A DNA stretch of 64,000 bases from Candidatus Aenigmatarchaeota archaeon (GTDB taxonomy: Archaea > Aenigmatarchaeota > Aenigmatarchaeia > PWEA01 > JACQIF01), in assembly GCA_016432325.1 (NCBI GenBank), contig CP066684.1, positions 352,001-416,000 on the forward strand, in the 5' to 3' direction. Under the pieces are notes generated by a model that made no database searches, was not told the origin of the DNA, and saw only the letters and a program-made list of their open reading frames with translations. Within the stretch, counting starts at the first letter, position 1, and each line of letters opens with the position of its first letter. Positions 37,506 through 41,704 of this stretch are shown piece after piece. The translations under genes were made by a program, and so were the position numbers.

Positions 37506-37603
37506 AGGTCTCGCACTAGTTTAGTAAATGATAGTTATTTAAGCGCGTTGTGTCTGCTCCACAACGAATTGATAAGCCATTCTCTCGTGAACGCAGAATA
37601 GTA

Positions 37604-37751
37604 GGAAGGGCGTTCCATACTTACCTGCCTTGGGGTAGGTTGGGTAAATGATGGAAGGGGTTCTTCCATACTTACCTGCCTCGAATTAGGTTGGGTAAGT
37701 GATGGAAGGGCGGGGTGTGGGGTGGTAGAATAGGATCGATCCGCCCTTCCA
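37604..37751 (+). ncRNA. Candidate structured RNA: two tandem 51-nt hairpin repeats plus a third stem
   Basis: TTCCATACTTACCTGCCT...AGGTTGGGTAARTGATGGAA x2; G-U pairs only on + strand. Confidence 0.4.
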
Positions 37752-37828
37752 GTGTGGGGGTGTGTCATTGAATGACAATGATGATGCGGTTTGTTCATTT
37801 TTCCGCATACACTGGACACACTTGATTC

Positions 37829-37894: not shown

Positions 37895-39028
37895 TTACCT
37901 TATCATGGGTATTCCGAGGCTGTCGGAGTACGACACCGAGGAGCTCTCCCTGGTTTCCGCGCGGCCCAGCACGTACGGGCTCTTCACGCCGGTCACAATC
38001 GTTATGACCTGCACGCGGCCGTTGAACTCAGGCAGTACGCGCGCTCCCCAGATGACCTGCGCTTCAGGGTTGAGGTGCTTTATCACGTACTCTCCAATGG
38101 TGTTGATCTCTTCCAGCTTCAGGTCTTCTCCGCCGATGACCTGCACAATCGCCCCGTTGCCTCCTGCAATGTCCGCTTCGAGCAAGGGGTGCTTCAGGGC
38201 TTTTGCCACGGCCTGCGAGGCGCGTGCGCCAGAGTCGTCGTCTCCTATGCCTATCAGAGCTACGCCACCCGAGTGCATTATCGCCTTCACGTCAGCGTAG
38301 TCCAGGTTCACGAGCGACGGCTGCGTTATGGTCTCTGTAAGACCCTTTATCATCGTCGATACGAGCTCGTCTGCGACAGCGAACGCCTGCTTTACGGGCA
38401 GGTCGCCTGCGTACTGCAGCAGCTTCTGGTTCTCTATCACGATTACCGTGTCTGCAGCCGCGCGGAGCCTTGAAAGGCCGTCTTCTGCCTTGTTTATGCG
38501 GGTTCCTTCCATCTTGAACGGCATCGTCACCGTCGCTATTACGATGGCGCCCATCTGTTTCGCGATTTCGGCCACAACAGGCGCGCAACCCGTTCCTGTT
38601 CCGCCACCGAGCCCTGTCGTTATGAAGAGCATGTCGCAGCCGTCGAGGGCTTCCTTTATCTCGCGCCTGCTCTCCTCCGCGGCCTTGCGGCCTACCTCAG
38701 GATATCCTCCTGCTCCGAGACCCTTGGTAAGTTCCTTTCCTATCAGAATCTTCTTGTGGGCCTTTATCGAAGACAAGTGTCTGGCGTCTGTGTTCAGCGC
38801 TATCGTGGACGCTCCTGATATTCCCATTTCGGTAAGCGTGTTTATCGTGTTTGAACCGCCGCCTCCGCAACCCGCAACAAGTATGCGTGCCTGGTGCATC
38901 TCGAGTCCGAACTCCTCGCTTATCTTCTGGGCGTCAGAGCCTGTCGGTCCGCCTGCCAGAGAAGCCTGCTTCTGTGTTCCAGCGGCGCCGAATGTTTTTT
39001 CGAATGCGTTCTGTATTATTGAATCCAT
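37895..39028 (-). CDS. ftsZ: Cell division protein FtsZ (FtsZ2 clade)
   Basis: GGGTGTG tubulin signature; ETITQPSLVNLDYAD. Confidence 0.95.
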   Translation of the reverse strand: MDSIIQNAFEKTFGAAGTQKQASLAGGPTGSDAQKISEEFGLEMHQARILVAGCGGGGSNTINTLTEMGISGASTIALNTDARHLSSIKAHKKILIGKELTKGLGAGGYPEVGRKAAEESRREIKEALDGCDMLFITTGLGGGTGTGCAPVVAEIAKQMGAIVIATVTMPFKMEGTRINKAEDGLSRLRAAADTVIVIENQKLLQYAGDLPVKQAFAVADELVSTMIKGLTETITQPSLVNLDYADVKAIMHSGGVALIGIGDDDSGARASQAVAKALKHPLLEADIAGGNGAIVQVIGGEDLKLEEINTIGEYVIKHLNPEAQVIWGARVLPEFNGRVQVITIVTGVKSPYVLGRAETRESSSVSYSDSLGIPMIR

Positions 39029-39163
39029 TTCAAATCCTCCCTCCTTTGTTTTTGATGACTTTTGGTGATCGTGAAGTTCTCACGGTCCCCCGATTTGTAG
39101 ACTGTAAAATATACTTTCGAGCGTAGATACGCTTTTTAAGTACCTTTTACAGACTATCCTCTA

Positions 39164-39323
39164 GAAGTTGTTTGCCCAAACTCTTCCGGACACTTGCCCA
39201 AGTGTTCTTCGTTACCAAATTCGGTGCGTGAAGGTTTCACGTGAACCCGTTGCCCAACGGGTGCAGTCCAATCGTTTGCCCGAACGAAGCGGATTGCGAG
39301 TGTGAAACACGGTTTCTGCACGG
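39164..39323 (+). ncRNA. Candidate structured ncRNA with four GCCC-tetraloop hairpins
   Basis: Four different stems closed by TT-GCCC-RA; TTTTAAG TATA about 25 nt upstream; T-rich 3' end. Confidence 0.55.
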
Positions 39324-39493
39324 TTTTAGTGTTTTTACTACCCGTGAGGACGCCTTATAAACATTTGTATAATGGAGAATATACATCCGACTAGACGAAT
39401 TGCAAATCGACAACTTACGAAGTTCTTGGAAAGCGAGGAAGTTCGAAACGCGTGCACATTCCGACAAAACGTGAAGGTTGCCGTCGCGCGGTC

Positions 39494-40069
39494 TTACTGT
39501 TTCTTCGGCCTTTCGAGCGCGTTGATTCTCTTGAGTTCACGCTCTATCTTGTCTATCGCGCGCTCGACGTCCGCGACGTTGCGCCCGCCTGTGCAAACTA
39601 TCTTCCCAGAGCCGAAAAGAAGGAACGCAACGTTGGGTTCGTCCATCCTGTAGACGAGGCCCGGGAACTGTTCGGGTTCGTATTCTGCATTCGGCAGGGA
39701 AAACGCTATCTCGTTAAGCTTGAGCGTGCCTTCGATGCGGGCCGAAGCCACTATATTCTCTATCCGTATCTTGGGCTTGTCGTTGATTTCGACCCCGATG
39801 CTCTTTATCGCTTCGATAACCTTGCCCATCGCTTTCCGCGCGAGCGCAGGCGAGCGGGCGCCTGTGCAGACGACCTTGCCGGAAGTGAATATCAGGGAAG
39901 CGGCCTTGGGCTCCTTCATGCGATAGACGAGGCCGGGGAACTGTTCGGGTTCGTATTCTGTGCCGGGAACCCTGGCGACAAGCTTGTTGAGCGGGACCTT
40001 GACGTTCAGAGTAGCTGACGCAACCACGTTTTCTATCCGAATATCCTTTGCCGTACGGATGCACCCCAA
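39494..40069 (-). CDS. tbp: TATA-box binding protein
   Basis: Two repeats IENVVAS...EYEPEQFPGLVYRM...SGK.VCTG. Confidence 0.97.
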   Translation of the reverse strand: MGCIRTAKDIRIENVVASATLNVKVPLNKLVARVPGTEYEPEQFPGLVYRMKEPKAASLIFTSGKVVCTGARSPALARKAMGKVIEAIKSIGVEINDKPKIRIENIVASARIEGTLKLNEIAFSLPNAEYEPEQFPGLVYRMDEPNVAFLLFGSGKIVCTGGRNVADVERAIDKIERELKRINALERPKKQ

Positions 40070-40171: not shown

Positions 40172-40558
40172 GTGGCAAAACCGCGATCGAACAGACACCT
40201 GAAAATGAACGAACTCTTGCGTCAAGAAGGACCTATGTTCCACGACGACCTGTCAAAAGCACTCGGTATTAACACGGTCTCCCGCCTGTCTCAGGTGTTC
40301 ATGGATGGCAGGCTGGAAGGCCTGCATGTGGACCGCTTCCTCTACACAATAGGCAAGCAGTTTGGGATTTACTGGTCTACCGGCAACGGCTCTTACAATG
40401 AACGGATGGATAACGTTAACCGTGCCGATGCCGCGGATATGGTGGAACGCAGGATAGGCGCGCCGATAAAGGGCTACCGCGAAAGCCACTTTGCATATCT
40501 AATCCGCGGTCTCAAACGCACCGAAAGCGGCGTGTGGGTCGTGGATGAAGAAGCCTAA
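40172..40558 (+). CDS. Hypothetical protein, possible N-terminal HTH
   Basis: ELLRQEGPMFHDDLSKALG pattern. Confidence 0.55.
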   Translation: MAKPRSNRHLKMNELLRQEGPMFHDDLSKALGINTVSRLSQVFMDGRLEGLHVDRFLYTIGKQFGIYWSTGNGSYNERMDNVNRADAADMVERRIGAPIKGYRESHFAYLIRGLKRTESGVWVVDEEA

Positions 40559-40941
40559 GTCTCGTCAGCAAAGTCCTTGAGCGTCCGCTCACCAAGAAAC
40601 TTCTTCCTCGCGCCTTCCATCGTTCCGGATACGCCCAGAGAGTGGGGTATCACGCGGACGCCGCCTATGCTCGTTATCAGGGCCAGCGCGACGCGCACGT
40701 TCTCTACCTGCACATGGCCACAACGCACGAGGCCGCGCTGCCGCTTCTCGTCCCAGGCGTCCTTGACGAACCATACGTTCGTGCGCGCTGTCCCGAGCTC
40801 GCCCAGAAGAGTCAAAAGCGCATTCCAGAAGGCGTCCACTATCGCATCAAACCTGAGAGGCTTCTCGCTTATGATTTCAAAAGCCAGGTAGCGCTTCTTC
40901 TCGCGCAGGGTAGGAGGAAGCGTTTTCGGTTTGTCCGCCAT
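40555..40941 (-). CDS. rnp2: RNase P protein component 2 (Pop5)
   Basis: PTLREKKRYLAFE, LGELG, GVSGT. Confidence 0.93.
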   Translation of the reverse strand: MADKPKTLPPTLREKKRYLAFEIISEKPLRFDAIVDAFWNALLTLLGELGTARTNVWFVKDAWDEKRQRGLVRCGHVQVENVRVALALITSIGGVRVIPHSLGVSGTMEGARKKFLGERTLKDFADET

Positions 40942-40996
40942 TTACTGGTCACCTCTAATTCTTCCGAGCTGTAAAATTGAAACCGAAGGTTTCATA

Positions 40997-41704
40997 TTAC
41001 TCCTCGACCTCCACGCCCTTGTACAGTATCTTGCCTGCCAGCTTCTTCTTGTTCGCCTGCACGCGCGCCTCGCAGGTGTCGCTCACGGCGCGCATGGACT
41101 CCTCCAGGGTCAGCCCGAGAATCTGCGCCAGGGCCGCGAGTTCACGGGGATCGCGCAACCCCCACGCGTCCTTTGCGCCTGAAGTGACCACGATGGGCGT
41201 GCCGAACTCCTTGCAGAGCATCACGTTGCGTTCCATGTGGTTCAGGACGTGCGTGCGGACGCGCTTGTATGTCGTCAGAAGCTCCCCCATATTCAATTCG
41301 AGCGCAACGCCGTTCTGGGCCGCGCTCTGCGTGACCACGTGGTCTATGCCAGAGTCTACGCGCTTGAACTCGGGATGCGCTATGACGTCGACGCGGCCGT
41401 CTTCGGCCGCGGCCCTGTTTATCGCGTAGTCCCCGCCTGAAACAAGCACGAGCTCTGCGATTTCCCTGTACTTCGCAAGGGCGCGCTTCAGGGTCTTTAT
41501 CGAATCGGCCTGTATTTCCACGGCACCGACAAGCTCGAGGCCGCTTTTCTGCGAGGCGTCGCGCAGACGTTTCCTGAGCTCCCTGAAAGCGTCGAATTTC
41601 TGGTGGTATTCGACGACAGCGAGTCCTGAGAATCCGAGTGTCGCGGCTACCTCGACCGTCTTTTCCAGATCCTGCGCGTGAACGTGCAAGTCATAGAATT
41701 TCAT
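40997..41704 (-). CDS. rnp3: RNase P protein component 3 (Rpp30)
   Basis: FYDLHVH, GGD..INRAA, DHV, TSGA...LRDPRE. Confidence 0.93.
   Translation of the reverse strand: MKFYDLHVHAQDLEKTVEVAATLGFSGLAVVEYHQKFDAFRELRKRLRDASQKSGLELVGAVEIQADSIKTLKRALAKYREIAELVLVSGGDYAINRAAAEDGRVDVIAHPEFKRVDSGIDHVVTQSAAQNGVALELNMGELLTTYKRVRTHVLNHMERNVMLCKEFGTPIVVTSGAKDAWGLRDPRELAALAQILGLTLEESMRAVSDTCEARVQANKKKLAGKILYKGVEVEE

Follow-up and report, generated by a model that had tools for sequence, protein, structure and literature searches.

Upstream of ftsZ in a genome of Candidatus Aenigmatarchaeota, an array of four hairpins displays one and the same GCCC tip on stems that differ from each other, and is best read as an undescribed small RNA family linked to ftsZ. 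With slightly better than even confidence, we regard the array as a stand-alone ncRNA gene of ~175 nt (39160-39337, + strand), which extends from a BRE/TATA-like box, P1, to an oligo-T tract, belongs to an ftsZ-linked family and has hairpin tips that would bind a partner. The direct basis for this reading is formed by the hairpins, their conservation and covariation, the synteny, and the absence of a match to a known family. A sequence-only reading of this DNA had proposed a candidate novel ncRNA; the element indeed looks like a structured, undescribed RNA, probably encoded on the + strand, in view of its conservation, covarying stems, G.U bias and lack of an Rfam match.

The hairpin array between ftsZ and the TBP gene

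The window, by which we mean the whole 64,000-nucleotide stretch of DNA that was analysed, belongs to a Candidatus Aenigmatarchaeota MAG (G000) that consists of one contig of 875 kb with 56% G+C and is 90% complete. The array lies in a 465-bp gap (39029-39493) between the start of ftsZ and the end of the gene for the TATA-box-binding protein (TBP), and matches to TIGR00065 and NF001597/NF001593 bear out these two flanks, which the sequence-only reading had named as ftsZ and tbp (Table 1). The second FtsZ paralogue is encoded at positions 523906-524868 of G000. In the 3' tail of the window ftsZ (37600-37760, - strand), two tandem hairpin units each carry UUACCCAACCU, an ACCCAA word like the upstream tip motif, yet on the ftsZ sense strand. 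As the ftsZ tails of relatives are without a lineage-matched motif, this likeness to the array tips may be due to chance.

Table 1. Positions of the genes, promoter-like boxes and predicted RNA features around the array, in window coordinates.
Feature	Position	Strand	Description
ftsZ	37895-39028	-	TIGR00065, 398 bits; one of two FtsZ paralogues in the genome
Proximal ftsZ promoter-like BRE/TATA	39106-39119	-	CGAAAG then TATATTTT; archaeal promoter consensus
P1, BRE/TATA-like box of the putative RNA gene	39126-39140	+	TATA CTTTTTAAG at 39132-40
Predicted 5' end	39158-39167	+	TAGAA box 29-31 nt after the TATA start; inferred
Hairpin 1	39164-39185, core 39170-81	+	4 bp, tip GCCC; stem extended by GAAG/CTTC to 39164-85
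Hairpin 2	39188-39207	+	8 bp, tip GCCC, one G.U
Linker	39210-39226	+	Local version of the single-stranded AYACUUAACAGUG-type box; by-eye comparison
CGUGAA/UUCACG hairpin	39227-39241 (39227-32/39236-41)	+	Predicted in the MFE fold
Hairpin 3	39245-39262	+	7 bp, tip GCCC
Hairpin 4	39263-39297, core 39272-87	+	6 bp, tip GCCC, closing U.G
Outer helix of hairpin 4	39263-69/39291-97	+	7 bp, one G.U
GUGAAAC	39302-39308	+	3' arm of an alternative long-range helix enclosing hairpins 3-4
Terminal weak hairpin	39320-39345	+	With T4 (39324-27) and T5 (39332-36)
Block 2, second promoter-like block	39353-39384		TTATAAA at 39355-61; AGAATATAC at 39376-84
TBP gene	39494-40069	-	NF001597/NF001593; convergent with the putative RNA

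The four hairpins with a GCCC tip that had been claimed from the letters are all present in the sequence, and in each of them the loop is identical while the stem is different. The tip motif of the array can be written here as UU-GCCC-RA, with the GCCC tetraloop placed on U-A and U-A/U.G closing pairs. A flanking stem of at least 6 bp was found at 1.8% of the 4164 other genomic GCCC[AG] sites vs three of the four sites in the array (binomial p ~2e-5); a chance origin of the hairpin stems is excluded. Folding compared with shuffled sequences gave z = -2.5 for the + strand and z = -0.07 for the - strand. The word TTGCCCRA, with 57 copies on both strands of the 875-kb genome, is enriched neither in the window nor in the whole genome, and the array is its sole cluster of at least three copies on either strand of the genome. 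GCCC-tip hairpins were not seen as a genome-wide theme in G000, where the array is single copy. Searching the whole genome with a covariance model of the hairpin unit (R1) returned only hairpin 2, as the best match, and one equally weak match (E ~0.3). This other match, at G000:C1:448759-448782 (L203:1560-1583, - strand; E ~0.35), is a palindromic TATA region with UGCCCAA at its centre; it is located ~15 nt before the ATG of a gene for a T2SSE-family (FlaI/PilB-like) ATPase and is probably due to chance.

Outer pairings had also been described for the array. The one around hairpin 4 is present, and so is the one enclosing hairpins 3 and 4 (39234-40/39302-08), though the latter competes with the local CGUGAA/UUCACG hairpin, whose 3' arm can pair alternatively with 39302-08. 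An equivalent helix exists in distant relatives. The GUGAAAC arm itself shows no covariation and is invariant in G001, a same-genus relative of the window genome. In distant lineages, e.g. L057, L064 and L150, the CGUGAA/UUCACG helix forms the base of a C-rich-tip hairpin. The linker box is weak in the window genome, where it contains a 5-nt insertion. Boxes of the type YGUGAAG recur two to three times within the main RNA and might form a G.A-rich (kink-turn-like) motif.

A TATA box of its own and a T-rich end had been claimed for the array, and the sequence contains a TATA-like box and T-runs. The counterpart of P1 is a near-invariant GCGAAATGCTTTTWWA-type box of 15-16 nt in most ftsZ-orthologue loci of the phylum, and the TAGAA/TTAGAA box stands at a constant distance from P1 across lineages. 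P1 resembles the TATA located ~26 nt upstream of the SRP RNA gene of G000, and the spacing from P1 to TAGAA resembles the TATA-to-RNA distance of that gene. A search of 201 phylum genomes with the P1 16-mer, allowing 1 mismatch, was not discriminating in these AT-rich genomes (~56 matches vs roughly 40 for the reversed control). At the other end of the array, the terminal weak hairpin with its T-runs is likely an archaeal oligo-T terminator, which would give an RNA of ~175 nt. The proximal ftsZ box, ~80 nt before the ftsZ ATG, stands back to back with P1; it is kept in G001, and a AAATATAT-type box is found at the same position in other lineages. The two back-to-back boxes are bracketed by a 12-nt inverted repeat (39098-109 and 39147-158), both arms of which are kept in G001, and this repeat (39098-39158) could be an operator controlling both ftsZ and P1.

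Nearly all lineages have block 2 behind the array, directly past the T-rich tract. Its - strand reads as a second copy of the P1 consensus directed at the array, and another TATA-like box looks outward, so that the array stands between two similar promoter-like boxes facing inward, with an outward TATA-like box behind each of them. No conserved protein gene or ORF was found downstream of block 2, where the neighbouring genes differ among lineages. Sequence past block 2 is kept within families without an ORF, both in the window (39385-39493) and in the f4 loci (e.g. L043). In f4 it spans from a AGAAUACAAAUGUCAC box to two GUGAA boxes, another clade has a CUGUUAAGUUAUCGAGUGG box, and the window carries CGTGAAGG at 39470-77. 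This kept sequence may represent a second short transcript or a leader remnant.

Conservation and covariation beside one FtsZ paralogue

G001 retains the frame of the element, namely both back-to-back promoter-like boxes, the TAGAA box, the CGUGAA/UUCACG box, the T-rich end and block 2. Within this frame, hairpin 1 has a shifted stem and a GCCTA tip, and hairpin 2 presents the same tip on a quite different 8-9-bp stem, again with one G.U. Hairpin 3 shows two compensatory double changes (C-G and G-C to U-A and U-A) together with a closing U.G, and in hairpin 4 an ACCC tip tops a different 6-bp stem, with a short helix outside it. No metagenome relative of the window's own family was found above 72% FtsZ identity; hence, the four-hairpin layout is comparable only with G001.

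The wider comparison, anchored on FtsZ, comprised 80 loci from genomes and 80 from metagenomes. Hairpins were counted when they had a C-rich tip and a stem of at least 6 bp and were located 60-430 nt upstream of ftsZ on the strand opposite to it. In this search for homologues upstream of ftsZ, which had been suggested along with the sequence-only reading, at least one such hairpin was present in 77 of the 97 distinct ftsZ-orthologue loci of Candidatus Aenigmatarchaeota and at least two in 50 of the 97, and the stems covary. The same count gave 19/97 orthologue loci on the ftsZ sense strand and 8/27 at loci of the other FtsZ paralogue. The array always accompanies orthologues of the window's ftsZ copy, loci of the other paralogue being mostly without it, and the right-hand neighbour, TBP in the window, is not kept in other families. 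In relatives, the order of elements is a BRE/TATA-like box pointing away from ftsZ, the hairpins, and then a T-rich tract. Between one and six hairpins are present per locus, with one only in some lineages, and their spacing is variable. Further kept pieces are the single-stranded AYACUUAACAGUG-type box, the CGUGAA/UUCACG helix at the hairpin base and a GUAAUUUAUUUUUUCU-type tail.

All tips of one genome share a motif, which differs from clade to clade of the FtsZ tree. In every family of the window's own order, 3-6 GCCCA(A) hairpins or single-stranded sites are found upstream of the ftsZ orthologue; they are invariably on the strand opposite to the gene, and the sense strand has 0 TGGGC. The tip types observed are GCCCAA (own order), GCCCGA, CGCCAA, GCCGAA, GUCCGA, CCCCCA and AGCCC. 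The L107 type (L107, L184, L186 and L200) has five unstructured GGGCU on the strand defined by P1. As GGGCU is the reverse complement of the sister clade's AGCCC and P1-like features are also found on the far side, this array is probably inverted between the facing promoter-like boxes. On the P1-defined strand, the L202/L101 clade carries three GGGGCUU and the L158/L071 clade has hairpin tips UGGGGGA and AGGGGA; in both clades the 5' and 3' boxes keep their usual orientation despite the G-rich motifs. These concerted G-rich switches, as far as they can be judged from the loci compared, argue against the need for a fixed orientation to the ftsZ mRNA and keep an RNA partner in play.

Alignment of whole elements with MAFFT, analysed with RNAalifold, yielded hardly any pairs or none, the elements being too unlike in hairpin number and stems to align, and therefore a gapless alignment anchored on the tip was used. 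Its rows were 123 distinct GCCC[AG] sites in arrays, unselected for pairing and extended by 10 nt to the left and to the right. Standard pairs make up 61.1% of the cells of the 10-bp register vs 45.4 +/- 1.2% when the partners were shuffled, and the covariation score is 0.42 vs 0.20 in the shuffles; neither value was reached in any of the shuffles (0/500 each), counts that are not probabilities as the rows are partly related. The signal peaks at slide 0 and falls on both sides, and these slid controls, which keep the relatedness, agree with the shuffles.

Strand, identity and competing explanations

Inside the stems of 102 distinct hairpins, G.U pairs outnumber A.C by 32 vs 15 (p = 0.009, optimistic since the sequences are related), and a count of helix-embedded pairs in the unselected set gave 29 vs 9 (p = 0.0008, optimistic for the same reason). 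The bias stems largely from the closing pair, without which 9 vs 3 remain (p = 0.07). Under the GCCC tip, the closing pair is U-A in 66 cases and U.G in 26, and the other strand would turn the U.G pairs into C.A mismatches. The earlier claim that wobbles point to the + strand agrees with this bias. T-runs of at least 4 within 45 nt 3' of the last hairpin are found on the array strand in 52/78 loci vs 22/78 on the other strand. A comparison of the strands by MFE was inconsistent across families, with the - strand being as good or better in several AT-rich families, which is probably an effect of base composition. Taken together, the G.U vs A.C counts, the closing pair and the T-tracts speak indirectly for a ~175-nt RNA that would be transcribed by itself from the + strand, and the spacing from P1 to TAGAA is a further indirect pointer to this strand.

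The array matches no known RNA family. Rfam 15, searched over the whole window at gathering thresholds, gave no family match, so the check with Infernal that had been proposed came out in favour of novelty, and a permissive search (E up to 10) of 39000-39520 gave only a chance C/D-box match. This match, to SNORD48 (39048-39083, + strand; 15 bits, E = 0.82), is antisense to the ftsZ leader and probably due to chance, as its C box is not kept in G001. The sequence-only reading had seen no likeness to tRNA, SRP RNA or RNase P RNA, and these three identities were rejected: the SRP RNA is found at 175744-176015 of G000, an RNase P RNA-like sequence at 649010-649275, and the window contains no tRNA. 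A coding element was rejected as well, because short ORFs are not conserved in G001 and the lengths of the indels between G000 and G001 are not divisible by three; peptide similarity is confined to a stretch of 17 residues, which coincides with hairpin 3. Likewise rejected was an archaeal replication origin with ORB repeats, since the stems differ among copies and the cumulative GC skew shows no turn at 391 kb. A literature search for such an element in archaea found no paper.

The RNase P RNA candidate (G000:C1:649010-649275) scores 56 bits, below the Rfam gathering score of 84, and the genes for the RNase P proteins, rnp2 and rnp3, are located in the window (40555-41704). By these sequence matches, the RNase P RNA of G000 is divergent or reduced. 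Few tRNA genes were found in G000, an unmasked single contig: the Rfam tRNA model detected 8, mostly 85-111 nt long, and ARAGORN with introns allowed detected 12, several with implausible introns. This suggests that the tRNA genes of G000 are heavily intron-bearing, split or otherwise atypical.

The strand signals bear most directly on the possibility that the array is part of a long 5' leader of the ftsZ mRNA on the - strand, starting from block 2, in which UYGGGCAA tips would bind a regulator of translation or stability in the manner of IREs. Such a leader would agree with the tie of the element to ftsZ, with block 2, whose - strand fits the P1 consensus and, in nearly all lineages, is directed towards the array and ftsZ, with the lack of a T-run between array and ftsZ on the - strand of most loci, and with the good folding of this strand in several AT-rich families. 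IREs are eukaryotic, located in the regulated mRNA and read by a protein; like them, the array hairpins combine a constant tip with freely varying stems and lie near a gene, and both can occur in several copies, but the strand signals seem to put the array opposite ftsZ, and the loop sequence and the IRE bulge are unrelated. We regard the leader as unlikely: G.U bias, U-A/U.G closing pair and T-tracts all speak for the other strand; a proximal BRE/TATA and a Shine-Dalgarno sequence already belong to ftsZ; and the L107-type array is probably inverted relative to ftsZ, so that the orientation to the mRNA would not be kept. The C-rich tips may alternatively be the seeds of a base-pairing sRNA for G-rich mRNA sites, as in the Firmicutes sRNAs with C-rich motifs. 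The pairing targets of RsaE/RoxS and of the UCCC-loop sRNAs of Staphylococcus are G-rich Shine-Dalgarno regions, and the array is like these sRNAs in its repeated unpaired C-rich motifs in hairpin loops. Base pairing shares the evidence for an RNA gene with our preferred reading, and the concerted G-rich switch in three clades would be easier with a complementary RNA partner. Unlike for RsaE/RoxS, however, the search for complementary target sites found none and Rfam has no matching family, and many of the tips are loops of just 4 nt closed by conserved pairs. Neither the window nor the genome is enriched in a word complementary to the tips or has clusters of it, and such sites show no preferred placement around start codons, although short seeds could escape such counts, and no lineage-matched complementary motif is found in the ftsZ leaders or tails of relatives. 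As the local Shine-Dalgarno sequence is in addition of the GGAGG type and not complementary to the tips, base pairing seems quite unlikely to us.

With both strands transcribed from the facing boxes, convergent transcription could set ftsZ expression through interference or a sense/antisense pair, with the hairpins as pause or processing signals or as binding sites on one of the two RNAs. Inward-facing promoter-like copies flank the array, with outward TATA-like boxes behind them, this mirror layout is found phylum-wide, and even the probably inverted array of the L107 type still has P1-like features on both sides. Convergent transcription would leave unexplained the constancy of one motif across all tips and its concerted change; moreover, the direction of block 2 comes from consensus matching only, and for an RNA with strong expression, convergent promoters at a distance of 170-220 bp would carry a cost, so that we consider this explanation very unlikely. 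We find it highly improbable that the array consists of DNA operators or iterons for a DNA-binding regulator of ftsZ, possibly exposed by cruciform extrusion. Duplex sites do not require complementary flanks, whereas covariation in the stems is strong, G.T is tolerated ~3x more than A.C, which is unexpected for DNA hairpins, the stems are short for cruciforms, and there is no GC-skew switch at the array, hence no origin signal. These points outweigh for us the position of the element between the promoters of ftsZ and neighbouring units, the flipped motif orientation in some clades, which would be tolerable for double-stranded sites, and the tandem, unstructured motifs of a few lineages (L083, L107, L082).

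A possible partner and a role in cell division

For the stand-alone RNA gene, which we prefer, multivalent binding of one partner is the natural reading of the array architecture. Repeated identical loops on variable stems typify protein-sponge RNAs such as CsrB/RsmZ, and the array is like CsrB/CsrC and RsmX/Y/Z in having several hairpins, variable stems, one loop motif and a copy number that varies among relatives. Unlike CsrB/RsmZ, whose motif is GGA (ANGGA), the array has GCCC-type tips with UU and RA flanks; it has no Rfam match, is fixed beside ftsZ and stands in an archaeal promoter/terminator context, and some relatives have a single hairpin. No match to CsrA (PF02599) was found in the 875-kb genome (90% complete), in which the controls were detected; with no CsrA gene found in G000, any partner would be of another kind. 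The single-hairpin lineages do not fit a pure sponge, and a simple sponge model does not predict the G-rich tips of three clades.

From these comparisons we infer the transcription, strand and ends of the RNA, the nature of its partner and any effect on FtsZ. Transcription would run divergently from ftsZ, starting at the BRE/TATA of P1 and ending at the oligo-T tract, and would yield a member of an RNA family that stays beside one FtsZ paralogue throughout Candidatus Aenigmatarchaeota. The working parts of this RNA would be its 1-6 hairpins (four here), with stems that are free to change and tips that display one single-stranded motif. Because this motif is uniform within a genome and different between clades, the tip copies may co-evolve with one trans-acting partner. 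A protein is favoured, given that the 4-nt loop is conserved together with the pairs that close it, that the hairpins are variable in number and spacing, and that the search for complementary sites found none. We take an RNA-binding protein to be the most likely partner; it would be bound in several copies by the RNA, which would titrate or scaffold it. As the linkage to ftsZ is kept across the phylum, the module may feed into the control of cell division.

We are aware of no multi-hairpin RNA from archaea that has been described as titrating a protein, and we know of almost nothing on the regulation of cell division in DPANN archaea, with their minimal genomes and dependence on a host. Being short and synthesisable, the array hairpin could serve as bait for the partner, and its sequence as a signature with which to mine metatranscriptomes. 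Should this partner be a protein, the motif switches from clade to clade would amount to a natural experiment in RNA-protein co-evolution. More tentatively, and still on the doubtful side, the element may be a DPANN-wide riboregulator of cell division, whose tips would bind copies of an RNA-binding protein and set FtsZ synthesis or division timing, with tips and protein co-evolving up to and including the motif switches. If true, such a riboregulator would be the first archaeal counterpart of bacterial Csr/Rsm control, assembled from unrelated parts.
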